In this document: positions 28,651-52,747 of the stretch, one piece after another
Layout of the letters: every line of letters begins with the position of its first letter
Position numbering within the stretch: position 1 is the stretch's first letter
From: an uncultured Candidatus Saccharibacteria bacterium
GTDB lineage: Bacteria > Patescibacteriota > Minisyncoccia > Phycocordibacterales > Zambryskibacteraceae
Direction of reading: 5' to 3'
Length of the DNA stretch: 64,000 nt
Assembly: GCA_964349945.1 (NCBI GenBank)
Contig: CAYGIH010000002.1
Location: 46,937-110,936, forward strand
Notes under the pieces: model-generated
What the model was told of the DNA's origin: nothing
The model's input: the letters and a program-made list of their open reading frames with translations, nothing else
Databases searched by the model: none
Translations under genes and position numbers: made by a program

Positions 28651-29750
28651 GATTTATTCATCGGCATCACTAGGTACATAAAGCTTTTATCTCCGACCCC
28701 TTCTACTACTATTGGCTTTGTTTGGCCGTTAAATCTCAAACTTATTGTGTCTCCAGAGATAGAGGCAAAGCTGTCTGTGAGGTATTTTTGGTTAATATTT
28801 ATAGACAAATCATCTCCTTCTACAACAGCGTCTATGTTGTATTTATTTTCTCCGATTGCTGTGTTTTTGGATTCTATTTCAAATAATTTTTTGGCTTTGG
28901 AAATCGTTATCCTTAGTTGATTAAAGGAATCTGAAAAAATCATGGCTGTTTTTAGTGAATTATTTAAGTCTTGTTTAAGAACCAACGATTTTGTTGTTGT
29001 CTCTTTTGGTATTATTTGTCTGTAATCAGGAAAAATACCTTCGATGATTCTTGAAGTTAAATATATTCCTCCTCCAAACATCGATATCTGGTTATCATGA
29101 ATAGAAAGAGAGACATCATCTTCGATTGAATCAAACACTCTTATTATTTCAGAAATATTCTTTTGTGGGATTAATATGTATTTGAAGTTTGGTGTTTTTT
29201 TAATTTTTATTTTCTTTTCTGCCAATCTAAATGAATCTGTGGCTGCGAATATTAAAAACTCATTCTCATGATAAATATAAACTGATGATAATTCTGGTTT
29301 CATACTCCCAATTGCTGCTGTATAGTTAACAGACTTTAAACCTAAAATAAAATCCTTTATAGGAAGGGTAAAATTTTCTTCATTTTTTAATGTGGGTATT
29401 ATAGGGAAATCTTCAGTTGGTAGTGTTTTTATATTTGTCTCTGTATTACCTGTTTTTACTAAAATTGTTTGCCCGCTCGTGTTAATAATTATATTTTTCT
29501 CTTTCGGTAAAGAATTTAAAAAAGAACTTATTACTTGAGCCGGAACAACAACTTCCCCCGGTTCAATAACCTTTACTGGTATTTTAGAAAAAAATCCCAA
29601 ATCAAGGTTCGTGGTTCTTATTGATAGAGTGTTGTTCTCAGCTTTAAAGTAAACTCCACTAAGAGAAGGAAGGGTTGGATTCTTTATAGCTATCTTTTCT
29701 GCTTTCCCTAATACCTCACTGAGCTTTTCTTTTATGCATTCTATTTTCAT
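28647..29750 (-). CDS. dnaN: DNA polymerase III beta sliding clamp
   Basis: Three-domain clamp, 367 aa, immediately downstream of dnaA. Confidence 0.85.
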   Translation of the reverse strand: MKIECIKEKLSEVLGKAEKIAIKNPTLPSLSGVYFKAENNTLSIRTTNLDLGFFSKIPVKVIEPGEVVVPAQVISSFLNSLPKEKNIIINTSGQTILVKTGNTETNIKTLPTEDFPIIPTLKNEENFTLPIKDFILGLKSVNYTAAIGSMKPELSSVYIYHENEFLIFAATDSFRLAEKKIKIKKTPNFKYILIPQKNISEIIRVFDSIEDDVSLSIHDNQISMFGGGIYLTSRIIEGIFPDYRQIIPKETTTKSLVLKQDLNNSLKTAMIFSDSFNQLRITISKAKKLFEIESKNTAIGENKYNIDAVVEGDDLSININQKYLTDSFASISGDTISLRFNGQTKPIVVEGVGDKSFMYLVMPMNKS

Positions 29751-29963
29751 ATATAAATACTTGTTACTACTATTAGTACTGTGGATATGGGGACAACAAA
29801 TCTATCTTTATTTTGGACCATATTTTTAAGAAAAGAAAAAACATGACTGGGGACAAGAACTAATAAGTGATTTATTGAAGTCATTAAAAACCAAAAGAAC
29901 AAAGAAAACATTGAGGGAATCAAGACTTTTTCCACAGTAATTTGGTTAGTTATCAACATAGTT
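29751..29963. promoter_or_regulatory. Candidate oriC segment (dnaA-dnaN intergenic) with DnaA-box-like 9-mers
   Basis: TGTGGATAT, TTTTCCACA, TTATCAACA and TTATCCTAT lie in an AT-rich 213-bp spacer. The 70-aa ORF called here is probably spurious. Confidence 0.45.
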
Positions 29964-31310
29964 TTATACAGATAATAGATTTCTTATCCTATCTATCTCT
30001 TGAGAAAGAAGAACATCTTCTTTAATGTCGTTTTTTATTTTTTCACAAGAGTGAATAACAGTCGTATGGTCTCTTCCCCCAAGTTTTTGACCAATAGAAG
30101 GGTAAGAAATACTAAAATCTTCCCTTAATAGATACATGATTACCTGACGAGGCTTGATTACTTCCTTTCTTCTTGTCTTTTCATAGATACTCTCTTCTTC
30201 AACTGAATAAAAATCAGAAACAATCTTTACTATATCTTTGATGGCAATGGTTTTCTTTGGTTTGGCATTATTCTTCACAAAATGACGGACATCCAAGAGA
30301 GAAATTTCCTTCCCTTTTAATTGGGATTGGATCACGAGGGTGTTTATTACCCCTTCAAGGTCACGGATGTTGCCATTAATTGAGTGAGCGAGATAATTAA
30401 TTATTTCATCTGACAGAGATAGTCCTTGGCTCTTGGCTTTGTTGGATAAAATAGCAATCCGAGACTCTTCATCTGGGGGAGGAATGTCCACGACCATCCC
30501 GGCAGAAAAACGAGACTTGAGTCGCTCTTCTAACCCAGTGATAAAGTGGGGGTGTTTATCGGAAGAAAAAATAATCTGCTTATTGTTGTCATATAGGGTG
30601 TTAAATAAATGGAAGAGCTCCTCTTGGAACTTTTGTTTGTCAGAAAAAAACTGAATGTCATCCATAATCAAAACATCATATTTTCTATATTTTTCTTTAA
30701 AAACGTTCATTTTTTGGTTTTGAAGGGCATTCATACAGTCCTGCCCGAATTTTTCTGAAGTCATGTAAAAGACTTTTTTATTTGGATTCATTGTCTTAAC
30801 ATAATTCCCAACAGCTTGGATTAGATGGGTCTTTCCATGCCCCGTTGAACCATAAATGAACAACGGGTTGTACATCAATCCAGGAGACTTCAATACAGCC
30901 TGAGCAGCTGCGTGTGCAAGTTGGTTAAATGGTCCTATTACAAACGTATCAAAGGTGTACCTTGGATTAAGGTTGTCTTCTTTATTTATCTGGGCTTCTG
31001 GAAGGGGCAACTCCTTTGAGCCGAATGGAATCTGGTTTGAAACAGTTTCCCTTCTTCTTGATTCTTCTTTATTAACAACATACTCAACCGCGTGTATAGA
31101 GCTTTCTAGGTTTCTAAGAGATTTTAGAATTGTGCTGTTATATTTTTGAATTAACCACTCCTTCACAAAAGCGTTTGGAACAGAAATCACCACCACACCA
31201 CCATCCTCTTTGACTATCCTTGTGTCTTTAAACCAAGTGGAAAAGTTTGCTTTAGAAACTGCAAGTTCTATTTCTACCAGAACGCCTTGCCATAGTTGTT
31301 TATAATCCAT
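29964..31310 (-). CDS. dnaA: Chromosomal replication initiator DnaA
   Basis: AAA+ Walker A GSTGHGKTHL and a C-terminal DNA-binding domain. Confidence 0.9.
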   Translation of the reverse strand: MDYKQLWQGVLVEIELAVSKANFSTWFKDTRIVKEDGGVVVISVPNAFVKEWLIQKYNSTILKSLRNLESSIHAVEYVVNKEESRRRETVSNQIPFGSKELPLPEAQINKEDNLNPRYTFDTFVIGPFNQLAHAAAQAVLKSPGLMYNPLFIYGSTGHGKTHLIQAVGNYVKTMNPNKKVFYMTSEKFGQDCMNALQNQKMNVFKEKYRKYDVLIMDDIQFFSDKQKFQEELFHLFNTLYDNNKQIIFSSDKHPHFITGLEERLKSRFSAGMVVDIPPPDEESRIAILSNKAKSQGLSLSDEIINYLAHSINGNIRDLEGVINTLVIQSQLKGKEISLLDVRHFVKNNAKPKKTIAIKDIVKIVSDFYSVEEESIYEKTRRKEVIKPRQVIMYLLREDFSISYPSIGQKLGGRDHTTVIHSCEKIKNDIKEDVLLSQEIDRIRNLLSV

Positions 31311-31909: not shown

Positions 31910-32653
31910 ATGTCAGCTTTCTATCATGGGTTTATTTTTAACCCCCTATATAATCTCCTAATAAGTCTTTTTACTCTCATTCCTTGGATAGACGCAGGTA
32001 TTGCTGTTATTATCCTTACGGTCATTGTGCGCCTCATTCTGTTCCCTCTCTCCAAGAAGGCTGTTTTAACTCAGGTAAGGATGCAAGGAATAAATGATGA
32101 TCTAAAAATAATAAAAGATAAATACAAAAACAAAGAGGAACAAGCAAGAAAAACACTGGAACTATATAAGGAAAAAGGGGTCAATCCTTTCTCTGGTATA
32201 TTGGTTCTCTTGATTCAACTCCCTATTATTTTCGCCCTTTACGGGATCTTTCTTAATGCAGGATTCCCAAATGTAAACGATAGTTTGTTGTATCCATTCA
32301 TTCATGCTCCTGAGCATATCAACACCTTTTTCCTTGGATTAATAGATATAACCAAGAAAAGTATGCCATTGGCATTATTTGCTGCAATAAGTACTTATTT
32401 TCAACTTAAACTAGCAACGACAAATCAATCAAAACCAAAAGGTAAGACAGAAACTAAAAATTCTTTTGGAGAAGACCTCGCTCAGAGTATGCAAACACAA
32501 ATGAAATACTTCTTCCCTATTATTGTTTTCTTCATTTCTTATAACATTTCTGGAGTGATAGCACTTTATTGGTTGGTTTCTAATCTCTTCACTATTGGTC
32601 AAGAGATAGTTGTACGTAGAGGCATTTCAATGGAAACAGTAAAGATTAGTTAA
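31910..32653 (+). CDS. yidC: Membrane protein insertase YidC (short Oxa1-like form)
   Basis: Five-TM core with the conserved region, in rpmH-rnpA-yidC synteny. Confidence 0.8.
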   Translation: MSAFYHGFIFNPLYNLLISLFTLIPWIDAGIAVIILTVIVRLILFPLSKKAVLTQVRMQGINDDLKIIKDKYKNKEEQARKTLELYKEKGVNPFSGILVLLIQLPIIFALYGIFLNAGFPNVNDSLLYPFIHAPEHINTFFLGLIDITKKSMPLALFAAISTYFQLKLATTNQSKPKGKTETKNSFGEDLAQSMQTQMKYFFPIIVFFISYNISGVIALYWLVSNLFTIGQEIVVRRGISMETVKIS

Positions 32654-33854
32654 GTTTGAGGGCCCAGAGAGAAAGATCACCCTTGTTCATAAAGATCATA
32701 TAATCTTCATCAGGAGTAAGTGTTGGATTAAAAACATCTATATCAACGCCTTGGTCCTTCTTTGGTTCTGCAAAGACATCAGTAAGTGTGGTTGATGTGT
32801 TGAATCCCCAAATTCTATCAGAAAAGGAAGTCTTTCCTTGATACCAATCATCTGGTTCATTTGATCCGATTGAGTCTGGCACGCCACAATATATTATTTT
32901 TATTGATTTAGAACTCCACACACACTTTTCAGATAATGTTGCTGGGACAAGAGAAAGGATGGTTTTAGAGGAATTGTTTTTCACTGAAAAATTAATAACC
33001 CCACCGATTTTATAAGAGTAAATAACGGCATCTTCATTTGGGCTAGGAAGCAGAGTGAGAGAATTTAAAGGACCAACAATTTTCGATAGTGTTCCATTTT
33101 TTGTGTTTAATTTATACGAGTAACCATCATAATTCCCACCGGCCTTCGTAGTGATGTAAACCTCATTAGTACCTGAAGGAGAAATTCTCCACTCTGTGAA
33201 GGGGGTGGTGTAAATATTAGTTGGCTTATCTCCAACAAACCCAGAAGTGACTATTGCTCCAGGGTTATTAGTTGAATAAACCAAGTCGCCAGAAGACAAA
33301 ACTTTAATCTCTCCTATGTCTCCACGAAGCATAGAAGCGTTTAATGTATATAAAACATCACCAGTTGATGTTGATTTTGGTGCAGTGAGAGAGATAGATG
33401 TGTTTATGATTGAATCATTATTGTCTAATGACCTATAAACAACCCCACTACCATCTTTTTTATAATATGCTTCATAAATTTTAGGCAGGGTTTTGTTTGA
33501 AATCTTCACTCTCTCCATTGTTTCTGGGTTCACATCAATGATGTGTCCTGTGGCTCTTTCTGTATATCTAATGATGGTTGAGCCGTTTTTAATTATGCCC
33601 ACTGCACCAGAAACAGGAGTGTTTGATATTTGGAAAAGTTTGGCTACAGGACGACCACTGGCGTCTAATCCAGAGCTTGGACTTTTGTTAGTTTGACCAG
33701 CAGGAACAACATCTGGACCACCATATCCAAATGGAGAAGTGGTGCTGGTTGGGGCGGGGGTAGTTGGAGTAGAAGATCTAAAAAAGACAAACCAAACACC
33801 AACAATGATTATCAGCGCAATGGGTATTAAAATTAATAATTTTTTATTATTCAT
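32646..33854 (-). CDS. Membrane-anchored extracytoplasmic protein (T4SS-like operon member)
   Basis: N-terminal TM, Thr/Pro linker and a beta-rich domain. Confidence 0.35.
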   Translation of the reverse strand: MNNKKLLILIPIALIIIVGVWFVFFRSSTPTTPAPTSTTSPFGYGGPDVVPAGQTNKSPSSGLDASGRPVAKLFQISNTPVSGAVGIIKNGSTIIRYTERATGHIIDVNPETMERVKISNKTLPKIYEAYYKKDGSGVVYRSLDNNDSIINTSISLTAPKSTSTGDVLYTLNASMLRGDIGEIKVLSSGDLVYSTNNPGAIVTSGFVGDKPTNIYTTPFTEWRISPSGTNEVYITTKAGGNYDGYSYKLNTKNGTLSKIVGPLNSLTLLPSPNEDAVIYSYKIGGVINFSVKNNSSKTILSLVPATLSEKCVWSSKSIKIIYCGVPDSIGSNEPDDWYQGKTSFSDRIWGFNTSTTLTDVFAEPKKDQGVDIDVFNPTLTPDEDYMIFMNKGDLSLWALKLN

Positions 33855-33855
33855 A

Positions 33856-34908
33856 TCATAATTCTATATGCACACTCTCCCCCGTGGTGGTACCTGGACA
33901 ACTAATAATAAGTTTAGGTTTAAACACATTAAAGACAGTTTTATTTTGAAGTTCTGATAGCCTTGCTCCGCAAACCTCGTATGTATAAGTTCTTGCACCA
34001 CTTTCACTAATAGCTTGAAAGAAGGCTCTTAACCCATTATCTGTTCTGTCTTCTACTGTAGCGTCAACACAAGTCCCATTATTATGACAAGAGTCTGCAT
34101 GTGGAACTGTTGGTGGAAACATTTCTGTTACTTGCCACCTACGAACACTCATTTTTTGAGTAAGATTTCTTAATATGGTTAGCATTTGTGGACTAACAAC
34201 ACACGGTCCAGGGTATTTACAGGCACCGTTTGTTGTTCCTTGAGGAGCAACTCCTTTTTGAGGAATGCCAGTTCCAGCAGCGGGAACACAAGTTAAACAC
34301 CCTGTTGGTGCTGGGCCAGGACCAGAACCAACACAACGCCCACCAGCATCTGCAGTTGTTTCGTCACCATTTTTTATTCCATCAAAACAGGTACCGTTTG
34401 TACCGTCACCACATCGACCACCAACGTCTATTCCAGTTTCATTGCCATTTTTTACACCGTCTCGACAGTCAACAGCAGTGCCGACTCCTAAACCACCACC
34501 AATTGGTCCACTCGGCGCAAAAACTTCTATTGAGAGATCAAGGTTTACTAACTTAGGATTAATGGTGTTTAAAAGAACATAAGAACTTATGGCTAAAATA
34601 AGCCCAAACAAAGCGTTGTTTATTTTATCCTTACCATCGCTCTTTTTTTCTATAGCATCAGTTGAAAGATATTGTATGCCACCAATGATTATGTAGATAA
34701 CTGCAAGGGCACTAGCTATCCCTATCCCTAATTTAAAAAGACCAGGAAGAAATGTGGTAATCGTAGCAGTGCCACCGGGGGCTATTTCTGGGACGTTTCC
34801 TGCAATAGTCTCATAAGTAGCTGGAACATCTGCTGCAAATAACATAAATGGAGAAAAATATAATAAAACCAATGTAATCTTATCTAAAAATTTATAAAGC
34901 CGTTTCAT
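33856..34908 (-). CDS. Cys-rich repeat-containing membrane/surface protein (T4SS-like operon member)
   Basis: Tandem ~24-aa modules DG(V/I)KNG(N/D)ET..D.GGRC with several TM segments. Confidence 0.35.
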   Translation of the reverse strand: MKRLYKFLDKITLVLLYFSPFMLFAADVPATYETIAGNVPEIAPGGTATITTFLPGLFKLGIGIASALAVIYIIIGGIQYLSTDAIEKKSDGKDKINNALFGLILAISSYVLLNTINPKLVNLDLSIEVFAPSGPIGGGLGVGTAVDCRDGVKNGNETGIDVGGRCGDGTNGTCFDGIKNGDETTADAGGRCVGSGPGPAPTGCLTCVPAAGTGIPQKGVAPQGTTNGACKYPGPCVVSPQMLTILRNLTQKMSVRRWQVTEMFPPTVPHADSCHNNGTCVDATVEDRTDNGLRAFFQAISESGARTYTYEVCGARLSELQNKTVFNVFKPKLIISCPGTTTGESVHIEL

Positions 34909-35920
34909 TATTGTATTTTATATTAACCACACTTTCCCCAGTTTGCATAAACCTGTTTAAATTTGTAATTCGCAAACCAAGCGATGAAACACCAGATCCA
35001 GAATCTCCTTGTCGTAATGTTATTGAAGTTTTGCTTGGTGTATCAATGATTTTATTATTAAGTGACCAAATATATTCTAGACCACCATTAGTAAGATCAA
35101 TCAATGCGAAATAGAAAGGAAAACCAACGATGCTCATCTCCTTTTCTTTCATAGTAAAATTGTCTTGTAATGATTTTTCTAATCTTAATCCATATAAAGG
35201 ATTGTTCTCATAAAAAAGAACAAAAGGGTCTGTTGGAGCGATGATCATTGAATTTTCCGCTTGGAAGGTTTTATTTATATTAGTCGCTCTAACAGTAATT
35301 TTCATTGGCTGACTAAAATTAGTGTCAGTTATTTTTAAAGAATTTTTCCCATAACCAGAAGAGTTTCCTAAAACGGTACCATCTTTAGACCAAGTATAAA
35401 TGAAATTATCAGATTTAATAAGTGAACCATTGGAATTCGTGTTGTTTGGTATCGCCACTAACAAAACAGAATTTTGTTTAGTGAAAAGAGGAATACCTTT
35501 ATAAAACACAGGAACAGAAGATAGTCCTTTTATTAATAAATCTACTGTTGCTGGTCTGATTATAATGGTTTTCGTAAATTCACTACTCTCTAGGGGTTTA
35601 ATGTTTATTGATACTGTGGTTGGAGAATTTAAATTTCCTAGAATGGTTGAAAAAGACACTTCACCAACACCATTCTTCATAACTCTCCCTTCAACAGACC
35701 AAGTAATAGTTGAACTATTAAGGTCTACTGAATAACTCTCAATATTAATTACCACAGTAGAATTAGGTTTAGGATTCTCGGGGCTAACTTTTATTGAGAC
35801 ATTTTCAGTTAATTCCTTTAATGCATCAGTGGGGGTGAGCTGAGCGTATATAAAAAAAGGGAAAAAACCAAGAAGGAAGATGGTAAAAAATAAGAAACGC
35901 TTCATATATTTATTATACAC
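34892..35920 (-). CDS. Secreted protein (T4SS-like operon member)
   Basis: Signal peptide and beta-rich sequence. Confidence 0.35.
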   Translation of the reverse strand: MYNKYMKRFLFFTIFLLGFFPFFIYAQLTPTDALKELTENVSIKVSPENPKPNSTVVINIESYSVDLNSSTITWSVEGRVMKNGVGEVSFSTILGNLNSPTTVSINIKPLESSEFTKTIIIRPATVDLLIKGLSSVPVFYKGIPLFTKQNSVLLVAIPNNTNSNGSLIKSDNFIYTWSKDGTVLGNSSGYGKNSLKITDTNFSQPMKITVRATNINKTFQAENSMIIAPTDPFVLFYENNPLYGLRLEKSLQDNFTMKEKEMSIVGFPFYFALIDLTNGGLEYIWSLNNKIIDTPSKTSITLRQGDSGSGVSSLGLRITNLNRFMQTGESVVNIKYNNETAL

Positions 35921-35927
35921 TATAGGC

Positions 35928-36326
35928 TTATTTCTGTGTTTCTACAGGTTGTTGATTTCCTTGTTCTTGTGCTTGTCCACCAGACTTCTTAAGTTTTTTA
36001 TCAGCTTTATCAAGCATCATATTTCTAACCCCAATTGCAGTCCATACAGGAAGAAAATCAAAAACAGGGATCATTTCTAAACCGAATCCTCCAATCATAC
36101 TTCCAATTTTTTTTGTATCGAGTTTTACCCCTCGAAGTTTAAGATACAGAGGTATCATCATACCAACAAATATATTTATAAATCTGTTCACAAGGACCCC
36201 AACAGCAAAAAAGTTCAATAAGGCCTGGACCCCATCCACTACAAGCAGGGCTCCTATAACCAAACCCCATTCTGTATTAGATATTTTACTACCCATATTA
36301 AACTGGTTTAGATGCCAAGGCTTCAT
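35928..36326 (-). CDS. Small polytopic membrane protein (T4SS-like operon member)
   Basis: Three to four TM helices. Confidence 0.35.
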   Translation of the reverse strand: MKPWHLNQFNMGSKISNTEWGLVIGALLVVDGVQALLNFFAVGVLVNRFINIFVGMMIPLYLKLRGVKLDTKKIGSMIGGFGLEMIPVFDFLPVWTAIGVRNMMLDKADKKLKKSGGQAQEQGNQQPVETQK

Positions 36327-38145
36327 CCTTTATGGCCGCCGCTTCTTGTTCAGCTTTCTTCCTCGCAAGCACTTGTGATGGATCAGAAGTAATTATTTGA
36401 TCTTCTGTATAAGAGGCAATGTTTTTTATAGCCACATGTTTGAGTCCAGCGAAGAATATTCCCTCCCCCAAACCAGATTCAAGGAGAAGAAACTTCTCTT
36501 CATCCGTGAGGTTAAATATTTTTTGGAGATTATCTACTGTTGTTGGAGATTGTTTAAGGAGAATCTGGATTGAAGAGTTAGTGATAATGGGTAGACCATA
36601 CGGACTCTTAAGGAAGTCCCCAACATCTTGAGTAATGGTAGCCACACCCAAATAATATTTTCTTCCTCTCTTAACCAAACTCATAAGGAAGCTTGCGGTA
36701 TCATCAGACTTCATCATCCACCACGCCTCGTCTATTACAAGCAGTCTCTTTTTTAGTTCTCGCCTGATGGCATTCCAAATATAGTGAGTGACTATATACA
36801 TTGCTATAGGTTTAAGCTCATCTTCCATGTCTCGGAGAGAGAAGACAATAAATTTTTTGTTTATATCTACGTTTGTAGGTTTGTTTATGAAGCCGGCCCA
36901 AGTACCCTTGGTGTACTTAGTAAGTCTTTGGGCAAGTGACGCTCCTCCTTCTAATCCAGAAAGTACAAGTTCGAAGTCACTCATAAGAGGTGGCTCAACA
37001 GAGCGGAAATCTGAGTCTGCGGTTATGTCTTTCAAAGCGTATGTCTCAGTGATGGCTCGGTCAATAATCGCATCTTCTTCTGCAGTAAGACCACCCATCA
37101 TTAGTCTAAATAGTCCAACGAGGTTAATAATGTTTGAGCGGAGAATGTTGGCTGCAGATTCATCAGCTGCAGGTATAGGGAGGTCAAATGGATTGATGTG
37201 GTGCTCGGAGTTAAGAGAAATTTTAAAGTATCTTCCTCCTGTGGCTTCTGCCATATATTCATATTCCCTCTCTGGGTCTATCACTATCACATCTACATCA
37301 AACATAAGAGTTCTGAGGATTTCTAATTTTGTGGCATACGATTTTCCTGCTCCAGCCTTCGCGAACATCACCGAGCTATAGTTCTCCATAGAGAATCTAT
37401 CAAACAAAACAAGAGAAGAATTGTGCCTATTGATCCCATAAAGTATTGGAGTGCCTTTATCCGAAGTGAGGTCAAAAGAAGTAAATGGGAAAAGAGACGA
37501 GAGCGGAGTCGAGTTCATCTTCGAATGAACTCCAAGTAAATCGTTGCCTAATGGGAGAGTGCTCTTGTACCCTTGCTCTTGTTGAAAGAGAGCGGGCTTC
37601 ATATAAACTAACTTGGCTTCCAGTATAGATTTGATTTCTGTTTCTACTTTATCTAGCTCTGCATCAGAATCTGCATAAATACTCATATATAAACCAACAT
37701 CAAATAATTTTTCTTGCGCTTGTTGGAGTTCGTCTCGGAGATTTTCAAGATCTTGATAGGCTACGTCGAGCATTGGATCACGTACGAGACCTTTATCCTC
37801 TCTAGAGTGAATTTGGCTTTGAACTTCTGCTACCTTCTTTTGAAATTGTCTGAGAACTTTGGATGTTTCTATGGGGTGGATAAAGATTGAGACATCAAAC
37901 GCCTTATCCATATTTATAATTGGAGAAAACCAACTCTCTGCGAGGTATCTTGGGTATGAGATGACGAAGAAACTTCTAACTATTTTTTCCCCTAGATTTA
38001 ACTCCTTAGGGGTAATTTTAAGAGCACTTGGAGCTATAATATCCTTTAATTCAAGTACCCCAGCTTCAAAGATTTCCTGCGGTAAAATAGACTGAATATT
38101 GGATTCCTTTTCCTTCTTTCCAAAAATGTTACTTAAAAAGCTCAT
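36298..38145 (-). CDS. VirB4/TrbE/TraC-family type IV secretion ATPase (C-terminal two-thirds)
   Basis: Walker A AKAGAGKSYATK and the Walker B hallmark VIDEAWWMM (DEAW). Confidence 0.75.
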   Translation of the reverse strand: MSFLSNIFGKKEKESNIQSILPQEIFEAGVLELKDIIAPSALKITPKELNLGEKIVRSFFVISYPRYLAESWFSPIINMDKAFDVSIFIHPIETSKVLRQFQKKVAEVQSQIHSREDKGLVRDPMLDVAYQDLENLRDELQQAQEKLFDVGLYMSIYADSDAELDKVETEIKSILEAKLVYMKPALFQQEQGYKSTLPLGNDLLGVHSKMNSTPLSSLFPFTSFDLTSDKGTPILYGINRHNSSLVLFDRFSMENYSSVMFAKAGAGKSYATKLEILRTLMFDVDVIVIDPEREYEYMAEATGGRYFKISLNSEHHINPFDLPIPAADESAANILRSNIINLVGLFRLMMGGLTAEEDAIIDRAITETYALKDITADSDFRSVEPPLMSDFELVLSGLEGGASLAQRLTKYTKGTWAGFINKPTNVDINKKFIVFSLRDMEDELKPIAMYIVTHYIWNAIRRELKKRLLVIDEAWWMMKSDDTASFLMSLVKRGRKYYLGVATITQDVGDFLKSPYGLPIITNSSIQILLKQSPTTVDNLQKIFNLTDEEKFLLLESGLGEGIFFAGLKHVAIKNIASYTEDQIITSDPSQVLARKKAEQEAAAIKDEALASKPV

Positions 38146-38146
38146 A

Positions 38147-38851
38147 TTATTTTTCTGGTTTTATTGGTTTCTCTGTCTCTCCTGGGTTAAAGGCTTTATA
38201 GAAAAGTTCTATAAGTGCATCTGTGCCTACTCTCTTCACTCTAATACCTGTTCTTACTAATCCTTGCTCTACTATAGACAACCTCTGTTCTAATTGGGTT
38301 CGGTTCTCTTCGAAGGTTGCCTCCTTCTCATCAACTTTTTGTTTAGTAGTTTTGCTTCCAAAGAGAGAGGATAAACCAGAGGCGTTTCCTGTGGATAAAA
38401 CAGGTGGAGTATAGGGAACGACAATAAAAAATTGCTTGGTCATAATACTGGTATCATCTGTGAATTTCTTTATGAATTGAATATATTCTTGAACTTGTAT
38501 CTTCATAAGGTCGTTCACTTGTTTCTTCTCTGTGGCATCGAGGAGGGCGAGGTAGGGCCTTATGTCCAGCCTCCTTGATTGGATGACTATTTCTATGGAA
38601 AAATCCAAAGAATTTAAAAAATCTTGAAATTGAGAGAGGATGGCAGCCCTCTCATCATCTGATTTTAGAGCGAAGTTGACCGACGAAGCCAAGACTACAG
38701 CCCTCATCCCACCATCCTTGAGGATCATGATACCGTCGCGAACTTCTTTTATAGGTACAAATGATTGAGTAGAGCTGTTTCCGGCTGGCATGTTTGTATT
38801 ATATCTTATCTTCGTTCTCCTTGTTCTCTTCCTCGTGGACATCAAGAGCAT
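38147..38851 (-). CDS. VirB4 N-terminal-domain-like protein (possible split or frameshifted VirB4)
   Basis: IKEVRDGIMILKDGGMRAVVLASSVNFALKSDDERAAILSQFQDFLNSL resembles the N-terminal region of Gram-positive-type VirB4. The stop TAA and the next ATG are 1 nt apart in different frames. Confidence 0.45.
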   Translation of the reverse strand: MLLMSTRKRTRRTKIRYNTNMPAGNSSTQSFVPIKEVRDGIMILKDGGMRAVVLASSVNFALKSDDERAAILSQFQDFLNSLDFSIEIVIQSRRLDIRPYLALLDATEKKQVNDLMKIQVQEYIQFIKKFTDDTSIMTKQFFIVVPYTPPVLSTGNASGLSSLFGSKTTKQKVDEKEATFEENRTQLEQRLSIVEQGLVRTGIRVKRVGTDALIELFYKAFNPGETEKPIKPEK

Positions 38852-39224
38852 AACTTAGCTCTTTTAATTTTGATTCTGAAAGTTTAGGCACATAAATCTG
38901 AGGAACCTCTCTTTCCTCTCCAGCAACCCTCTGTATAGGAGCTTTTTCTTCTCTTTTCCATACATATAACCTACTTGAAATCATATACTCGAAAAAAGCC
39001 TGAACGAGTTCTATGAAAGGCTTGGAGTTTGGTCTATAAAACGCAAGGGCGACAGCAAAGGCTAAAATTGGTAAACCAAGAATTATGGCTATATATATGT
39101 TTAAAAACTTGAATAAAACAGCACAAATCCCCACCCCTCCTCCAAGGTATATGAATTGCTTAAAGGTCAGAGGGCCTATAATTTTATCTTCCACATCAAT
39201 GAATTGTGGTACTTTAAATCTCAT
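38799..39224 (-). CDS. VirB3/PrgI-like small two-TM protein
   Basis: Two adjacent TM helices, placed directly upstream of the VirB4 parts. Confidence 0.4.
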   Translation of the reverse strand: MRFKVPQFIDVEDKIIGPLTFKQFIYLGGGVGICAVLFKFLNIYIAIILGLPILAFAVALAFYRPNSKPFIELVQAFFEYMISSRLYVWKREEKAPIQRVAGEEREVPQIYVPKLSESKLKELSYALDVHEEENKENEDKI

Positions 39225-39241
39225 ACTTTATATAGTTTACA

Positions 39242-39859
39242 CTAAACCAACGGTTCTCGATAAGGATCTATACCACCCACGTATTTAGAAGTGGCGGTGA
39301 CAGACTGGGTGAGGTGTTCTTCTACGATATTCTTTGAAGTTTCTGCTTGAACTGGTTGAATAATTGGTTTTGACTCGACAACTACAGGATTCTCTACAAC
39401 AGGTTTTTCTTCTAATAAGTTAATATTTTTGTGTTGAGCTTCTGGTTCTACATTCAAAACAGGCTTGTTTTCTTCGGTGTGTTCAGGGATAAGAACTTCT
39501 TCTTCAGGCAAATCAATTAATGCTTCTGGTTTGGGGGTGTTTAATGCATCCAAGCTATCTGCCATCATTAAGATTGGTGAAAAGACTTCATCCTCGATCT
39601 CTTTTATGAGAGTATCTATTGTTTTCTCATCTATAGAAAGCTCCCTTTTTAAATTTTCTCTGAAGTTTTCTTGTGGTTCAAAACAATAAATTATAAGGAG
39701 AGTTTCTGTTTCCAAAGTTTTTAATTTATCTTCATCAAGTCCAGCACTTTCTCCAATTCCCCTGATCGATTCCTTCCACGACACAGTTTTAATAGCCTCT
39801 TGTAGTGGTTGAGGGAGAGTTTCTAATTGTGCTTGAGTTAATTTGTCTAAGTCGTTCAT
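39242..39859 (-). CDS. Acidic hypothetical protein (T4SS-like operon member)
   Basis: E/D/P-rich 205-aa protein. Confidence 0.3.
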   Translation of the reverse strand: MNDLDKLTQAQLETLPQPLQEAIKTVSWKESIRGIGESAGLDEDKLKTLETETLLIIYCFEPQENFRENLKRELSIDEKTIDTLIKEIEDEVFSPILMMADSLDALNTPKPEALIDLPEEEVLIPEHTEENKPVLNVEPEAQHKNINLLEEKPVVENPVVVESKPIIQPVQAETSKNIVEEHLTQSVTATSKYVGGIDPYREPLV

Positions 39860-42159
39860 GATTCTGGTGTTGTTTTTTTGTCTCCGCCTTCCTTTTTACT
39901 CCCACCTTCCTCTTTTGGTTTTTCGCTACCAGCTTTATCTTTTGCTGCTTCCTCTACTTCTGCTTCTGCTAATAAATCTTTTGCTTTTTCTCTTTTACTT
40001 TTTTCTTTTGAAGCTGTTCGAATAGCAGCAGCCTGTCTTCCCCCTGCGCTAACAAATGAAGTTATCCTTCCAGAGATTGTCTTCACAGCTTCTTCTTTGT
40101 TTGTTGTTATTTCTCCGTTTTTGTTTATATAATTCCCATATTGATCAACTTTGTATCCTTCTTGTATCCTGGCAGCTCTTTCCATACTAGATACTTTTGT
40201 ATTATTTTTTCTTTCAATTGCTTTTTCATGAGCTTCCTTTGTTGATCTTGATTGCTCAGCTACATAATTGTTCCTTGATTCAGTTCTTAACCTTTTTTGT
40301 TCATCGAATTTTGCCTTGGCGGCAGCCACTTTTCTAGATTTTTCCTCAGCTGTGCCTCCATATGGGTTGCCATTTGAATCAACAATTGTTGATACTGGTT
40401 TAGCTGCATCCTCTTCTGCTAATCTCAATTCATTTTCTGCACCAGCATATTCAACCGAAGCGGGGTTTTCTGCTTCAAATTTTTCTTCTGCTTTCGAGAC
40501 AGCACTATCATGTATTTTTTTGGCTTGCTCCTCTGCTTCCTCTGCGGCTTTTACTTGGTCAACCTTAGGTTTATACGACGCATATCTTTTTTCTAACTCC
40601 TTTTTATCAGTAGCGTAGCCGCCGCTAGGTGCACTACCAGCTCCTAGTGTCCCACCCAAAGCAGAACCACGCAAATCAAGGCTACTTTTTGCCCCCTTAT
40701 TTGCTGCCATAAGAGCAAGTCGTGCAGACATACTACCTTCAGCGGCTGCCTTTTTAAGTTTTTCATTATCAGCGATATTTTGAAATCCTGCACCCAAGGT
40801 TGATCTTCCTACATTCGAAACCAATCCAAATGACGCAGATCCAGCTTTCTTCATTGCCCATTGGTTCATTCCAGAGACTATACTTCCAGATTTATCAGAA
40901 ACCTTTTTAGCTATTAATATGGTCGCGATTAGGAACGCGATAATAACAATAAAATTCATAATTAATCCAATATTGCCCACTCCTGCTTCTGCGCTTTGGA
41001 TTATGACCCCGGCGGCATTCTTTTTTTCTACTAAACTCCCAGTTAATGCATCTCCCAGTGTTGATGTAGAAGGAGTACAGACCCCATTTACCATTTTGTT
41101 TCCGTATATAAAAGTACAAGAATTAAATATTTTAATCACAACCCAAGTGATAATCATATAAACTGGTGCAAACAACGCTTGACCAGTTAAGGCATCTTTC
41201 CATTGGTCAGCATAAGTTTTCATCCCTGGGATGATGCTTCCAACTACAAATATTGGGGAAAGAATTAAAACAAATATCAGGACTACATACCTAATAATAA
41301 ACATAAGCGCAATTGCAAAAAATATGAACGCCGCGATGAGTGTGAAAACAGATCCGAGTATACCTATAGTAATGAGGTTGGTTCCAGATAAATTGTCACT
41401 AAGATTCCAAATACTAGATAGGTTAAGTGGCTTCATTATTGCATTCGATAGACCAGTTTGAAGAAGATTTGCTTCATTCACATCTCCACTAACTATTGCT
41501 TTGTAGAAAGTGAGGGTTATAAGATTTGAAGCGTCTATTACTAGTGAAGTGAAGAAAAAACTAAAGTTCATAAGGAGCGCTGCAATGATCATATTCACCA
41601 CAAACTTTTGAGTTTCCTTGCCTTCACCAACTATGGTCCTTATAGCTTGATAGAGGAGAATAAAGATAAAGGTCATGTTTGCGAGATCCCTTATCATTCC
41701 CCAACTTATTTTTATAGCCCCGATATCTCTATAATGTTCTGCCATATCGACAACGGTATACAAGAGAACGAAATTCAAAAGAGCTCCAGCTAGTAAGGTT
41801 ATTAAGCTGAGTAGTCTCATGATAGTAAGGGCAATCCAGCCGACACCCTTCATAAGACAACCAGTAAGATTTGTTAAACCGCAGGTGTCGTCAGTCTGCG
41901 CGGCAGCCATAGCTAACACTGGAGCAGCTCCGGAAGCTCCTGGGTTTGAGGCGGCCGTGGGGGCTGGCGGCAGGGTTGCAGCTCCTGGTGCTGGACCTTG
42001 TCCACCACTAGCAGGTCCTAATCCTCCTTGTCCAGGTAATAATTGTGCGTAGATATTGGAATGAGGAGTAAGAAATCCAACTAATGTCACAAATATTAAA
42101 ATGAAATAGATCCCTTTTTTCATTGTTGATTTAGAGCATTTACATAAATCGAAGTACAA
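39856..42159 (-). CDS. VirB6/TrbL-like polytopic membrane protein with a C-terminal charged tail
   Basis: Signal peptide, Gly/Ala/Pro-rich low-complexity segment, more than six TM helices and a K/E/A-rich C-terminus. Confidence 0.5.
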   Translation of the reverse strand: MYFDLCKCSKSTMKKGIYFILIFVTLVGFLTPHSNIYAQLLPGQGGLGPASGGQGPAPGAATLPPAPTAASNPGASGAAPVLAMAAAQTDDTCGLTNLTGCLMKGVGWIALTIMRLLSLITLLAGALLNFVLLYTVVDMAEHYRDIGAIKISWGMIRDLANMTFIFILLYQAIRTIVGEGKETQKFVVNMIIAALLMNFSFFFTSLVIDASNLITLTFYKAIVSGDVNEANLLQTGLSNAIMKPLNLSSIWNLSDNLSGTNLITIGILGSVFTLIAAFIFFAIALMFIIRYVVLIFVLILSPIFVVGSIIPGMKTYADQWKDALTGQALFAPVYMIITWVVIKIFNSCTFIYGNKMVNGVCTPSTSTLGDALTGSLVEKKNAAGVIIQSAEAGVGNIGLIMNFIVIIAFLIATILIAKKVSDKSGSIVSGMNQWAMKKAGSASFGLVSNVGRSTLGAGFQNIADNEKLKKAAAEGSMSARLALMAANKGAKSSLDLRGSALGGTLGAGSAPSGGYATDKKELEKRYASYKPKVDQVKAAEEAEEQAKKIHDSAVSKAEEKFEAENPASVEYAGAENELRLAEEDAAKPVSTIVDSNGNPYGGTAEEKSRKVAAAKAKFDEQKRLRTESRNNYVAEQSRSTKEAHEKAIERKNNTKVSSMERAARIQEGYKVDQYGNYINKNGEITTNKEEAVKTISGRITSFVSAGGRQAAAIRTASKEKSKREKAKDLLAEAEVEEAAKDKAGSEKPKEEGGSKKEGGDKKTTPES

Positions 42160-43625
42160 TTTATTGGACCACCACCAATCACATTTTCATTTTGATCGTT
42201 AACTAAAATAGTCATTAATTTTGGACCTTCTGTTGTGTAAGAGATAGAAATGTTTGATCCAAAGGCATAAGTAAGGTCAGTGTCATATGTATTTGCTTTT
42301 TCTATCTCATCTCCACTCCAGTTGTATGTATTTGTTGCCCTTGTAGGAGAGGTGTCTCTTACTGTCCAAGTGATTGATTGTCCAATCCCAACATCTGTAT
42401 TATCTGCATAACAACTGATTGAACCTGTTCCGGTCCCTCCTCCTGTTCCCCCACCTGTTCCCCCGCTACCACCGGTGCTTGTTCCTGCATTGTTTCCAAA
42501 TTCATCAGGATTTGCGGTGCCACTATCTGCATAGTCTGAGGTTGCATTATTTGTATCAAACAAAGAGCTACCCGCAGAGAATAATTTTTTCGTAAGGGCT
42601 GTCACAAGTGCACTAATCACATCATCGAATGAACGAGCTAGTCCCAGATCGGTTATACCCTGCCCAAGAATAGGTTGTAGTTGTCCTTCAATGATACTTC
42701 CTGGAGTTTTGGTTGGACCTTCTTCCTTACAAGGACCAGGACTTCTTGTCCCGTCACTAGCCACTATCTCATCTCCAGGAACCTTACAATCACCTTTAAA
42801 AGATAGGAAACCCTTATTCCAATTTGCTTCTAGTTTTTTCATTCCTAATTTGTCATAAATTCTTCGATCCATTTCAACTTTTGCGTCCATATATGCACCA
42901 TATGGATTATTCGCATTATCTTGAGTCATTTGAAACCACTCATTCCAACCACCACTGCTGAAATCTTTGGTAAAGTTTTGCAGATTTGTGCTCACTGAAG
43001 TGAAAGTACAAGATGATGTTCTTTGATATGTATCCACATATTGTTCTGAAAGTGAAACTTTTATTTTTGCTTGAAATGGAGAACACAAAACATCTAAATC
43101 GGCACCATGAATAAAATCTCCAGCAGCGTTGTCTGCGATTGTTTTAAAATACCCCTTTGGATCAGTCACATATGCCGGACCACCCTCAAAACCACCGTTA
43201 ATCCATTTAACCGTAGAATTTGTGATTTGTTTCACTATGCCCTTGATGACAACTTTAGCTATTGAGTCCCAACTTAAGAAAGGCATAGGTACTCCCAAAA
43301 GAGTTGGCCCTACAGTTTTATCCTTTACTGCTTTTGTATTTTTTTGAGTGGCGCAGTTTATTGCTCTCAAATTAATAATCACTGGGTCGATAACAGCATT
43401 ACTGGTCGGTACTGAAAGTAAAGTGTTGCCTGCAGCAAGAGTTACCAAAGGAGCATCAACATCAGCAGCGGTTACTGGCCCATTAGGTATTACACAAGGA
43501 TCAGGGTCAGCGTCAAGAGAGGCCGGTAATATCGCAAAAGTAGTCTTAAAAGGAAGAATTAAAGAAAATATAATTATGAAACTTAATAATGTTGTTTTAA
43601 GTATTTTTGTCATAAAGAGTTCCAA
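42120..43625 (-). CDS. Secreted protein with a Gly-rich linker (GGSGGTGGGTGGGTG) and a C-terminal beta domain
   Basis: Signal peptide present. Confidence 0.35.
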   Translation of the reverse strand: MELFMTKILKTTLLSFIIIFSLILPFKTTFAILPASLDADPDPCVIPNGPVTAADVDAPLVTLAAGNTLLSVPTSNAVIDPVIINLRAINCATQKNTKAVKDKTVGPTLLGVPMPFLSWDSIAKVVIKGIVKQITNSTVKWINGGFEGGPAYVTDPKGYFKTIADNAAGDFIHGADLDVLCSPFQAKIKVSLSEQYVDTYQRTSSCTFTSVSTNLQNFTKDFSSGGWNEWFQMTQDNANNPYGAYMDAKVEMDRRIYDKLGMKKLEANWNKGFLSFKGDCKVPGDEIVASDGTRSPGPCKEEGPTKTPGSIIEGQLQPILGQGITDLGLARSFDDVISALVTALTKKLFSAGSSLFDTNNATSDYADSGTANPDEFGNNAGTSTGGSGGTGGGTGGGTGTGSISCYADNTDVGIGQSITWTVRDTSPTRATNTYNWSGDEIEKANTYDTDLTYAFGSNISISYTTEGPKLMTILVNDQNENVIGGGPINCTSIYVNALNQQ

Positions 43626-44419
43626 CCAAAGGCAGGATCTGTCTTGTTAAAAATTATACCACTAGCCTTAAAATAATCTGCCATAATAATTAATGTTGTA
43701 GATTCATAATCTGAATAATTACTAAAGTTATTTAAACCAGCAATAGTGGAGATTGGGTCAGTTTCTGAATTTTCAAGTTGCTTTAGACTGACCCCACTAG
43801 CTATGTAATTGTTGACTAATTTTAGATGAAGATCCACTAGAGATGCGGGCACGGTTAACTTAGACACTTCTTCTCCCATTTGAGTATATAGGTTAGCAGC
43901 GATTAATATGTCTTTTGTTAAAAGCGAACCAGCAAAATCTAGAGCAGGGTCTCGTTCTGGAGATTTTCTCTGTATAAATAGATTTTTATATTTAGTTTTG
44001 ATAGTCCAAAATGAATTAGCGTAGTTTTTTATATCCTCTTTTGTTTGATTTGGTATTATTTTAATATCGACTGCGGTGTATATTTTGGGAGGAACAATTT
44101 TAATTTGAGAAGAGATGCTTTCTACAAGGCTTTTTGTGGTGTTTTCGTTCAAATTTCCAGATTGTTTAAGGTCTAAGAACTGGGCTAGCAGTTTTTTACT
44201 AATTTCATCTGTTTGGTTTAAACCAGAGTTCAAGGAGTCAGGAGAAACATATTCAGTATTAGTATTTCCTACTGCGAAATTTTGTTGATTTCGGCTCGAT
44301 TCAACCGATAACCCAACGCTTCTAGCAACTGAGTCGTTAAATCTAATAAATAAAGCTAGAATTATGAGAAACAGTGCCAATACTGTAGTGACAATAATCA
44401 CTGGAGAAATTTTCTTCAT
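43610..44419 (-). CDS. Secreted/membrane-anchored protein (first gene of the T4SS-like operon)
   Basis: N-terminal TM or signal sequence. Confidence 0.35.
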   Translation of the reverse strand: MKKISPVIIVTTVLALFLIILALFIRFNDSVARSVGLSVESSRNQQNFAVGNTNTEYVSPDSLNSGLNQTDEISKKLLAQFLDLKQSGNLNENTTKSLVESISSQIKIVPPKIYTAVDIKIIPNQTKEDIKNYANSFWTIKTKYKNLFIQRKSPERDPALDFAGSLLTKDILIAANLYTQMGEEVSKLTVPASLVDLHLKLVNNYIASGVSLKQLENSETDPISTIAGLNNFSNYSDYESTTLIIMADYFKASGIIFNKTDPAFGWNSL

Positions 44420-44496
44420 GTTCTATTAAAGTATAGCAAAACTATTACTGTTTTACATGTGTTATTAGCACTTATTGTGCGTGATATAATAAATGA

Positions 44497-44868
44497 ATGA
44501 AAAAAACATTAATAATGCTAATCTTAATTTTGTCCCCCTCCGTATCTTCTGCTGCTATAGGAGTAAGTTTTGGAGGATTGACTAACGTGGTGATTCCCTG
44601 CACATGTAGCGGCGGAGCCATTATTTCATATTTTCCTTTCTATAATAATACCAAAATACCAACTGTAGGAACGTTATATTATCAATTTCCAGTAAGTTTT
44701 TTATTTAGAAATTACAACCCGATAACTCCACTCACCTTTCATTTGGGGGTATATACTCCTGGTATTCAAGCTGCTTGTTTGACCGGAGTGCCACCATTTT
44801 GTGTTCCTGTGACTATTCCAGTACTTGGAATGATTCAGTATATGGGAACAAGTCTTACCCCTTTATAA
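44497..44868 (+). CDS. Small secreted Cys-containing protein, divergent from the T4SS-like operon
   Basis: Signal peptide, 123 aa. Confidence 0.3.
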   Translation: MKKTLIMLILILSPSVSSAAIGVSFGGLTNVVIPCTCSGGAIISYFPFYNNTKIPTVGTLYYQFPVSFLFRNYNPITPLTFHLGVYTPGIQAACLTGVPPFCVPVTIPVLGMIQYMGTSLTPL

Positions 44869-52324: not shown

Positions 52325-52390
52325 GAAAAATAACTTAGTAAACTATTATTAAAAATTCTGATTTCAAACACCCACTACTATAATAGTATC

Positions 52391-52657: not shown

Positions 52658-52709
52658 CTAAAAACAATAGCATATAAGCCAATATTAAGCAAGTAAGCCG
52701 TTTTAGATA

Positions 52710-52735
52710 TAAAAAAGCCCGGTTTTACCCGGGCT
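52710..52735 (-). terminator. Intrinsic terminator after the DGQHR gene
   Basis: AGCCCGG ttttac CCGGGCT followed by a U-run on the minus strand. Confidence 0.65.
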
Positions 52736-52747
52736 GAAGGACAGACC

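Follow-up and report, generated by a model that had tools for sequence, protein, structure and literature searches.

We analyzed 64,000 nucleotides of DNA (the window: positions 46,937 to 110,936 of contig CAYGIH010000002.1, GenBank assembly GCA_964349945.1) from an uncultured bacterium deposited as Candidatus Saccharibacteria and placed by GTDB in the Zambryskibacteraceae of the Patescibacteriota, with a focus on an operon that encodes parts of a type IV secretion system (T4SS). The approximately 54 open reading frames (ORFs) that cover the whole window were scanned against Pfam. The ORF listing contains 11 consecutive minus-strand ORFs, here called g1 to g11, which run from position 44419 to 32646 in tight packing, with junctions ranging from a 53-nt overlap to a 17-nt gap; the largest overlaps arise because starts were called as the longest possible ORF. 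A first-pass annotation had described eleven tightly packed, often overlapping minus-strand genes over this range, and all of these ORFs are present as it described them. It had drawn the whole region as 32646-44868, of which the minus-strand operon stands, whereas 44497-44868 is a plus-strand ORF outside the operon strand. The genes are as follows.

g1: 43610-44419, minus strand, 269 aa, predicted anchored extracytoplasmic protein
g2: 42120-43625, minus strand, 501 aa, candidate surface protein
g3: 39856-42159, minus strand, 767 aa, tentatively VirB6-like
g4: 39242-39859, minus strand, 205 aa, acidic protein
g5: 38799-39224, minus strand, 141 aa, assigned to PrgI/VirB3
g6: 38147-38851, minus strand, 234 aa, TrsD-like
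g7: 36298-38145, minus strand, 615 aa, assigned as VirB4 ATPase core
g8: 35928-36326, minus strand, 132 aa as the longest ORF, small basic membrane protein
g9: 34892-35920, minus strand, 342 aa, probable exported or anchored protein
g10: 33856-34908, minus strand, 350 aa, VirB2-type pilin domain with a C-terminal extension
g11: 32646-33854, minus strand, 402 aa, probable anchored extracytoplasmic protein

The last gene, g11, overlaps the convergent yidC gene by 8 nt. A promoter consensus scan of the operon region returned promoter-like sites at chance level, and 16 terminator-like sites were counted against 9.2 in shuffled sequences, none of them informatively placed.

For comparison with relatives, one genome per GTDB species was scanned, which yielded 591 tblastn-confirmed loci with a VirB4 relative. 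The best 80 (77-90% identical) were kept, and counts of synteny and identity refer to the 43 of these 80 loci that have full 10-kb flanks. All 80 come from metagenome-assembled genomes labelled Parcubacteria, Paceibacteria, Zambryskibacteria, Taylorbacteria, Wolfebacteria, “Saccharibacteria”, Patescibacteria group or simply “bacterium”, and the best relative is Parcubacteria bacterium C7867-005.

Secretion-system components and their conservation

The clearest component is g7. It matched the NCBIfam model conju_CD1110 with 369.6 bits (cut-off 325) over model positions 185-736 of 752 and Pfam P-loop_TraG with an E-value of 5.8e-24, and it contains a Walker A motif GAGKS at aa 265 (37339-37353) and a Walker B motif DEAW at aa 472 (36721-36732). 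From these sequence matches g7 is assigned as a VirB4 ATPase core of the MPF_FATA or Firmicutes CD1110 type, which bears out the DEAW-motif VirB4 ATPase of the first-pass annotation.

Directly upstream lies g6, which we assign as TrsD-like, that is, a free-standing homologue of the VirB4 N-terminal domain. It matched NCBIfam VirB4_plasma (positions 99-233, E 4.8e-11), the CD1110 VirB4 model (positions 2-118) and the TrsD model (E 6.5e-5), all of them under the curated cut-offs, and carries the precomputed domain PF26593, TraC-like. Its true start is probably M21 at 38791, where the orthologues and an independent assembly begin. A TrsD-like gene directly precedes virB4 in 78 of the related loci, in 63 of them in a different frame. 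Because the split between the two genes is kept in these 78 loci and in the independent metagenome assembly, it is real, and a frameshift artefact is ruled out.

The third component, g5, scored 40 bits against Pfam PrgI (cut-off 27, E 5.7e-10) and has two hydrophobic segments. It is assigned to the PrgI/VirB3 family, with two predicted transmembrane (TM) helices, in agreement with the two-TM VirB3/PrgI-like protein noticed earlier. The large protein g3 has approximately 8-9 hydrophobic segments followed by a 350-aa C-terminal tail rich in Lys, Glu and Ala, and it is encoded upstream of prgI, as prgH is in pCF10. It matched Pfam TrbL at 20.1 bits (E 6e-4), under the cut-off of 25.9, and the NCBIfam conjugal transfer protein model MMCAP2_0566 with an E-value of 6.5e-4; its profile found only low-complexity matches to the charged tail among all PDB sequences. 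Topology and position fit a VirB6/TrbL-like protein of the “extended VirB6” layout, a label that we use tentatively. Of the earlier description of g3 as a 767-aa VirB6-like protein with a charged tail, the polytopic layout and the tail hold, and the VirB6 identity stays provisional.

The DEAW ATPase is accordingly not the sole T4SS-related product of the operon: PrgI and the pilin g10, described below, pass Pfam cut-offs, and the TrsD- and VirB6-like proteins give weaker matches. The first impression that most components cannot be annotated is now only partly true. Neither a relaxase nor a type IV coupling protein (T4CP) of the VirD4/TcpA type was found in the Pfam scan of the approximately 54 ORFs of the 64-kb window, as the first-pass annotation had also stated for its gene list.

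The operon is bordered by dnaN, dnaA, rnpA and yidC on one side and by ksgA, uvrD/pcrA, a LysM-M23 peptidase gene and a gene for a YifB/ComM-type ATPase on the other. Its GC content of 0.36-0.40 matches that of the flanks, and there is no compositional break. The order uvrD-ksgA-[g1 g2 g3 (g4) g5 g6 g7 (g8) g9 g10 g11]-yidC-(rnpA)-dnaA-dnaN recurs in 43 of 43 loci, an arrangement far beyond chance. Six genes (g3, g5, g6, g7, g9 and g11) were found in all 43 loci, g2 in 42 and g10 in 41; g1, g4 and g8 diverge faster, and positional orthologues of them exist. That the gene order is kept in all 43 species indicates that the operon is inherited vertically as part of the core genome, under strong constraint, and is not mobile. 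Together with the lack of a relaxase or T4CP, the presence of several T4SS parts and the conserved core flanks, this agrees with the first-pass view of a chromosomal T4SS-like apparatus of the candidate phyla radiation and not a conjugative element.

Median identities to the window proteins differ strongly between components:

VirB4: 80.5%
DnaA: 62%
TrsD: 61%
PrgI: 49%
DnaN: 49%
exported proteins and the VirB6-like protein: approximately 30%

VirB4 is thus more conserved than DnaA (29964-31310), which suggests a central physiological role.

A pilin joined to a putative peptidase

The only pilin gene in the window is g10. The protein matched Pfam T4SS_pilin (PF18895) with 32.3 bits against a cut-off of 26.6, and it also matched a mycoplasma NCBIfam model for a pilin-like protein of integrative and conjugative elements (ICEs). 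Hydrophobic segments lie at residues 7-25, 60-78 and 98-116, and the AlphaFold2 model has helices at 53-82 and 86-116; comparison of this modeled hairpin with the conjugation pilin of Aeropyrum pernix (PDB 8dfu) gave a score of 5.6. The protein divides into three parts.

34561-34908, minus strand: pilin part (aa 1-116), signal peptide and VirB2-type hairpin
34303-34554, minus strand: linker (aa 119-202) with two Cys-rich modules
33856-34302, minus strand: C-terminal domain (aa 203-350)

Canonical pilins of the VirB2/TrbC type are small, approximately 70-130 aa when mature, and have no extra domains. At 350 aa, with a C-terminal extension of 230 aa, g10 is longer than these and is therefore a pilin-domain fusion protein rather than a canonical pilin. 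The linker is predicted to be disordered (predicted local distance difference test score, pLDDT, below 35) and contains, at aa 148-193, the Cys-rich modules CRDGVKNGNETGIDVGGRCG and CFDGIKNGDETTADAGGRCV, a tandem of the pattern DGxKNGxET. These modules are absent from nine of nine homologues with the same C-terminal domain and from all ORFs of the 80 loci; the Cys-rich linker is a lineage-specific insertion unique to the window protein. The first-pass annotation had recorded a membrane protein with tandem Cys-rich DGxKNGxET modules, and the modules are there; the protein that carries them is the VirB2-type pilin.

A word-index search with the C-terminal 148 residues found ten homologues, seven of which carry the precomputed pilin domain PF18895. 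The motif S-x-H275-x-x-G-x-C-x-D282 is invariant in their alignment, and nine of the ten share E344-x-x-H347, close to the C-terminal end. We take this combination of H/D and ExxH to be the signature of LAS/M15 zinc peptidases. H275, D282 and H347 would then be putative zinc ligands and E344 the glutamate of the ExxH motif. The structural model of the domain has a hedgehog/DD-peptidase (LAS, M15-like) fold, as its comparison scores with solved structures show.

Sonic hedgehog N-terminal domain: 9.8
murein endopeptidase MepA: 9.6
VanX: 7.6
VanXYc: 6.9
VanY-like LdcB: 6.6
Streptomyces albus DD-peptidase: 6.5
several phage L-Ala-D-Glu endolysin peptidases: approximately 6

The domain is a candidate peptidoglycan peptidase in a VirB1-like role.

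The fusion is widespread among relatives of the domain. An exhaustive HMMER search of 1.84 billion representatives (clusters at 50% identity) recovered 362 relatives; the motif H-x(5-7)-D is present in 129 of 150 of them, and an N-terminal pilin domain in 142 of the 150 best, the other eight being 113-230 aa long and shorter than almost all fused ones. A pilin gene is present in 66 of the species loci, and the types of pilin C-terminus in these 66 were compared by hidden Markov models and clustering. A LAS-like domain of the g10 type was carried by 13 of them. A second group of 13, to which the two nearest relatives of the window organism belong, had a different domain with the motif ITGGTE...H...D...HWH, which matched Peptidase_M15_4 below threshold (E approximately 2e-3). 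The remaining pilins had other extensions, most of them without an assignment and one of them a 3D domain. Four related genomes have two pilin-domain genes, and the LAS-like domain sits on the second copy at L010:9796-10686 and L072:14800-15678, which suggests duplication and module exchange at the pilin position. No report of a pilin-peptidase fusion was found in the literature searched, the coverage of which was incomplete, and a pilin fused to a LAS/M15-like zinc peptidase, with exchangeable C-terminal modules, is apparently an unreported feature.

Accessory proteins and genomic setting

The other six operon products (g1, g2, g4, g8, g9 and g11) showed no family or solved-structure relative by sequence. 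For g1 and g4, no Pfam or NCBIfam family was matched. The single hydrophobic segment of g1, the first gene of the operon, lies at aa 7-25 and points to an N-terminal TM anchor followed by an extracytoplasmic domain; tblastn found an orthologue at the same position in 33 of the 43 full-flank loci. The acidic g4 (net charge -24) has no TM segment and is probably cytoplasmic. It has positional orthologues in 30 loci, with the N-terminal approximately 96 aa conserved best, and is also called as a gene in the independent assembly. The small basic membrane protein g8 has positional orthologues in 22 loci; according to these and to the gene call in ENA assembly ERZ27247817, it starts at M11 (36296) and is 122 aa long.

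The two-part protein g2 is a candidate for an exported component that acts at the surface or binds the host. Its conserved, mostly helical, Cys-containing core (approximately aa 80-355) has the invariant positions W141, G272 and T307-P308 and four nearly invariant Cys, and no relative of this core was detected. A Gly-rich linker follows at aa 385-397; here, at aa 385, is GGSGGTGGGTGGG, the linker that had been noticed earlier in a signal-peptide protein and is now located. The C-terminal domain (aa 400-500) was confidently predicted as a beta-sandwich of the immunoglobulin (Ig)/PKD type, resembling domains of intimin/invasin and the PKD domains of collagenase. Homologues of g2 differ in this domain, carrying PKD, PF16403, PF00150, PF01471 or PF00754.

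Among 36 orthologues of g9, nine gave faint Pfam matches to Ig_3 or BiPBP_C; a search with its profile against all PDB sequences gave nothing significant, the best hit being an Ig-type domain (E 0.018). It is a conserved accessory component, exported or anchored, and probably has Ig-like repeats. The last protein, g11, has invariant C311 and C323 among its orthologues, 3 of 33 of which gave faint Pfam matches to DPPIV_N or PD40, and it has an N-terminal TM anchor and an extracytoplasmic domain that is probably beta-propeller-like. Profile searches with orthologue alignments of g11 and g2 against all PDB sequences returned nothing meaningful.

Beyond g1 lies the divergent ORF that the first-pass annotation had included.

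44497-44868, plus strand, 123 aa, signal peptide and four Cys; overlaps the ksgA stop by 14 nt

It matched no family. Orthologues occur in the same place and orientation in 13 loci, and the ORF may be associated with the operon.

Further observations concern the rest of the window. A LysM-LysM-Peptidase_M23 protein is encoded at 47860-48789 (plus strand), 3.4 kb upstream of the operon. Although M23 and LysM domains occur in some of the VirB1-like proteins encoded near virB4 (PMC12102498), tblastn found this protein in only 8 of the 43 related loci, which makes a link to the T4SS doubtful. The window also contains type IV pilus genes at 8259-9296 (pilM), 7733-8266 (pilN) and 7174-7731 (an unassigned 185-aa gene in the pilO position), and a PilB/GspE-type ATPase is encoded at 20660-22342. 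With these genes and the T4SS operon, the window holds parts of both envelope machines that have been reported as essential in Saccharibacteria.

The dnaA-dnaN spacer (29747-29959) contains a 70-aa ORF and three DnaA-box-like 9-mers with one mismatch each, at 29780, 29928 and 29950, and is a possible oriC site. The only, small, cluster in the DnaA-box scan lies here, at 29780-29958; the cumulative GC skew has its minimum near 46-50 kb, away from this spacer.

The first-pass annotation had reported no integrase, which is correct for the operon and its flanks and incorrect for the window as a whole, where two recombinases are encoded.

1969-3594: large serine recombinase, 541 aa, XisF/Ccr-like, 29 kb from the operon
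55007-55939: Xer-like tyrosine recombinase, 310 aa (XerD 253 bits, XerA 236 bits against a cut-off of 220), 10.6 kb from the operon

Housekeeping genes lie between the operon and each of the two. The serine recombinase gene adjoins a gene for an AAA_25 ATPase (834-1814), and its 3' end overlaps a tRNA gene on the opposite strand (3541-3612); the stretch 834-3612 is probably a small integrated element or remnant unrelated to the T4SS operon. An ORF with a LAGLIDADG domain (4264-4953) lies directly beside a tRNA gene (4181-4262) and may be the remnant of a homing endonuclease. The Xer-like recombinase lies within 52000-56000, a segment with a GC content of 0.49 against approximately 0.38 elsewhere, which also holds two ORFs without a family match (52748-53866, and 54033-54854 with an equally long antisense ORF). 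An Rfam search found no rRNA in this segment. It may represent a foreign island, or it may just be the xer locus.

Function and relation to known systems

Patescibacteria account for a large part of bacterial diversity. The locus described here is a new example, of the Paceibacteria/Parcubacteria type, of the known chromosomal, non-conjugative T4SS of Patescibacteria; the system and its placement beside dnaA, ksgA and rnpA have already been published (PMC12102498, PMC10633639). A survey of 3,035 Patescibacteria genomes found a monophyletic VirB4 clade nested in MPF_FATA, with TrsD as the commonest companion of VirB4 and with PrgI/VirB3, VirB6 and VirB2-like pilins (PF18895) near virB4 (Quinonero-Coronel et al. 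2025, PMC12102498). According to the same survey, relaxases are nearly absent, T4CPs are rarely linked to virB4 and have homologues that are common elsewhere in the genomes, and the T4SS of Paceibacteria and Microgenomatia adjoins dnaA, dnaN, rnpA, ksgA and rpmH (PMC12102498). In Southlakia epibionticum, transposon sequencing identified SEML1_0006-0019, which include pilins, TrsD, PrgI and VirB6, as essential for epibiotic growth (Wang et al. 2023, PMC10633639). A 2025 FEMS review lists the Patescibacteria systems among the T4SSs as a new type that potentially has pili, and the T4SS of this group is the first one shown to be essential to the life of its bearer (PMC12857230). In addition, a preprint on a cultivated patescibacterium describes tubes, thought to be T4SS pili, that penetrate the host envelope, as well as the uptake of host RNA by a route that is left open (bioRxiv 10.64898/2026.06.21.733656).

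The best explanation of the operon, and in our judgment a highly probable one, is a non-conjugative T4SS of Patescibacteria. For this machine we favor the building of a pilus or bridge for exchange with the host, with import and the export of effectors both being live variants. The operon encodes a membrane platform, namely a tentatively VirB6-like protein (g3), PrgI/VirB3 (g5) and a VirB4 split into a TrsD-like part (g6) and a core (g7). To this it adds one pilin of the VirB2 type (g10) and the conserved proteins g1, g2, g9 and g11, all four of which are exported or anchored. By analogy with other T4SSs, VirB4/TrsD would dock on PrgI and VirB6 and power the extraction of pilin and its assembly into a pilus or tube, which would cross the bacterium's own wall and extend to the cell of the host that the bacterium presumably lives on. 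Since the C-terminus of the pilin would lie outside the membrane, the Cys-rich peptidase part would be extracytoplasmic. There it could cut peptidoglycan cross-links locally, in the bacterium's own wall in the manner of VirB1 and possibly in that of the host. The exchangeable Ig/PKD-type module of g2 and the variable pilin C-termini would supply host-specific contact. A role in host-cell interaction would follow by analogy with the genetics of Saccharibacteria (PMC10633639).

The machine would not serve conjugation, which is unlikely because there is no relaxase or T4CP in the 64-kb window. Among related systems without a T4CP, ComB and Ced take up nucleic acid and Ptl uses two-step secretion, and the lack of a coupling protein likewise favors a pilus or bridge used for uptake from the host, or else two-step secretion.

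Several points weigh against this interpretation. The VirB6 assignment of g3 is below threshold, and among 45 orthologues scanned with Pfam, only three matched TrbL and one TrbL_4, which keeps the label tentative. No VirB8-like or canonical VirB1 protein was identified among the operon products; hhalign comparisons of operon profiles with single Prg/Pcf sequences of pCF10 were uninformative for VirB8- and PrgK-like parts, as even PrgI against PrgI reached a probability of 25%. Four conserved exported proteins are without a fold assignment. The C-terminal part of g10 matched no Pfam or NCBIfam (M15) model, a pilin of 350 aa with a globular C-terminal domain may not polymerize, and g10 might be processed or be only a membrane-anchored hydrolase. 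As 64 kb of the genome were examined, genes for a T4CP or relaxase may lie in another part of it.

A more specific version of the proposed role gives the peptidase an active part at the host wall: a zinc-dependent peptidoglycan peptidase would be exposed on the pilus or on its base near the membrane, with other exchangeable payloads in sister species. The pilus itself would then cut through the host wall and open a conduit for parasitic feeding, and a rapid exchange of C-termini in the pilin and g2 would determine the host range. We offer this tentatively and consider it improbable as a whole.

Among other explanations, the operon could be a nucleic-acid import system, like ComB of Helicobacter or Ced/Ted of archaea, in a cell unable to make nucleotides. 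This is a doubtful but serious alternative. It would fit the lack of a T4CP and relaxase in the window, the resemblance of the pilin part to a pilin for conjugation or DNA transfer in Aeropyrum pernix, a weak local similarity of VirB4 to CedB, and the ComM/YifB and type IV pilus genes nearby. The host-RNA uptake and host-penetrating tubes of the cultivated patescibacterium point the same way, although the preprint explicitly leaves the route of RNA uptake unsettled (10.64898/2026.06.21.733656). However, no nucleic-acid-binding or channel component specific to ComEC, CedA or ComB systems was detected in the operon. Moreover, deletion of comEC in S. epibionticum ended competence and not viability, whereas the T4SS is essential (PMC10633639, as summarized in PMC12857230), so that its essential role is not ComEC-dependent DNA uptake.

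Export of protein effectors or toxins to the host, as by the antibacterial T4SS of Xanthomonas or the 89K system of Streptococcus suis, is rather unlikely. For the system of Saccharibacteria, Wang et al. suggested that it exports proteins or has some alternative role (PMC10633639), the C-termini of g2 and the pilin are variable exported modules, and the peptidoglycan peptidase could itself be a delivered toxin. Yet the locus has no coupling protein to recruit cytoplasmic substrates, no effector-immunity pairs or recognizable secretion signals were seen, and the peptidase is no free effector, as it forms one polypeptide with the pilin.

It is distinctly unlikely that the operon makes an adhesive pilus or attachment organelle only, in which nothing is transported and the peptidase serves insertion through the bacterium's own wall. 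VirB4 is needed for pilus biogenesis in other T4SSs (PMC12102498), and the operon encodes a pilin together with a putative wall hydrolase and a module of the Ig/PKD type but no substrate-handling parts. Against this, the type IV pilus parts in the window (pilM, pilN and pilB) represent the adhesion and motility organelle of Saccharibacteria (PMC10633639), so that a second, adhesion-only pilus would be redundant, and the very strong conservation of VirB4 suggests a central physiological function.

That the operon is the transfer module of an ICE or integrated plasmid, with relaxase, T4CP and integrase outside 32646-44868, is extremely improbable: although the closest curated relatives of VirB4, PrgI, TrsD and the pilin belong to Firmicutes conjugative elements and mycoplasma ICEs and the window holds two recombinases, one of these is Xer-like and the other lies 29 kb away, beyond the genes for DNA polymerase I, ruvABC, tyrS, a penicillin-binding protein and dnaA/dnaN, VirB4 is more conserved than DnaA, the opposite of what a mobile element would lead one to expect, and the identical chromosomal flanks in 43 of 43 species, the lack of a relaxase or T4CP within 64 kb and the uniform composition effectively refute this reading.

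The locus adds no new system but a clean, fully syntenic example from Paceibacteria, in which the conservation of VirB4 beyond that of DnaA is in line with a core physiological role. The wall-hydrolase function that seems to be “missing” in most T4SS loci of Patescibacteria may sit on the pilin as a LAS/M15-like peptidase. The pilin and g2 both combine conserved parts that would bind the machine with fast-changing C-termini, which makes them candidates for determinants of host specificity.

The locus is closest to the T4SS of the Patescibacteria clade, with which it shares an MPF_FATA-type VirB4, an adjacent TrsD, PrgI, a pilin of the VirB2 type and, tentatively, a VirB6-like gene. Both are also without a relaxase or T4CP close to virB4, and both have a chromosomal place beside dnaA, dnaN, rnpA and ksgA, as reported for Paceibacteria. 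Comparison with the Saccharibacteria locus, which the first-pass annotation had proposed, found the same core order VirB6-PrgI-TrsD-VirB4 in S. epibionticum, if g3 is taken as the VirB6. The two differ in that S. epibionticum has an array of six pilin genes where one is found here, and in that the Saccharibacteria locus encodes a separate multi-lysozyme protein downstream of virB4, whereas the putative peptidase here is part of the pilin. The proteins g1, g2, g9 and g11 are not described in either account (PMC12102498, PMC10633639).

As in the MPF_FATA systems of Firmicutes (pCF10, CTn2 CD1110), VirB4 passes the CD1110 cut-off and PrgI is present. The genes for the tentative VirB6, VirB3/PrgI and VirB4 are collinear with prgH-prgI-prgJ of pCF10, followed in both by a wall-hydrolase function (putative here), and TrsD is a free-standing homologue of the VirB4 N-domain as in pGO1. 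Unlike systems of the pCF10 type, no PcfC-type T4CP, relaxase, PrgB/PrgC adhesin or VirB8-like PrgL was detected in the window. To our knowledge, Gram-positive conjugative systems are without a VirB2-type pilin; the operon described here has one and, unlike Gram-positive MPF_FATA elements, is a fixed chromosomal operon rather than mobile.

Among curated models, those from the ICEs of mycoplasmas (the pilin-like Mbov_0395, the VirB4 Mbov_0397, and MMCAP2_0566) rank first or nearly so for the pilin domain, TrsD (first) and the VirB6-like protein, all under the curated cut-offs, and their VirB4 model ranks second to CD1110 for g7. Their hosts likewise belong to a wall-reduced or monoderm lineage, and a small pilin-like membrane protein is common to both, but those elements are mobile. 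From the archaeal Ced/Ted systems the operon differs in that no CedA-like channel protein was found and in that its VirB4 is of the bacterial CD1110 type.

With respect to the peptidase, the g10 domain differs from LAS/MEROPS M15 enzymes in that it escapes the M15 models, has extra conserved Cys residues and is, as far as detected, always joined to the downstream side of a T4SS pilin domain. Known enzymes of the VirB1 type are proteins in their own right, namely lytic transglycosylases, some of which have added CHAP or NlpC/P60 domains. Like the hydrolases VirB1, PrgK and TraG, the proposed peptidoglycan-cutting activity is encoded in the T4SS operon, downstream of virB4; unlike them, the candidate metallopeptidase is covalently joined to the pilin.

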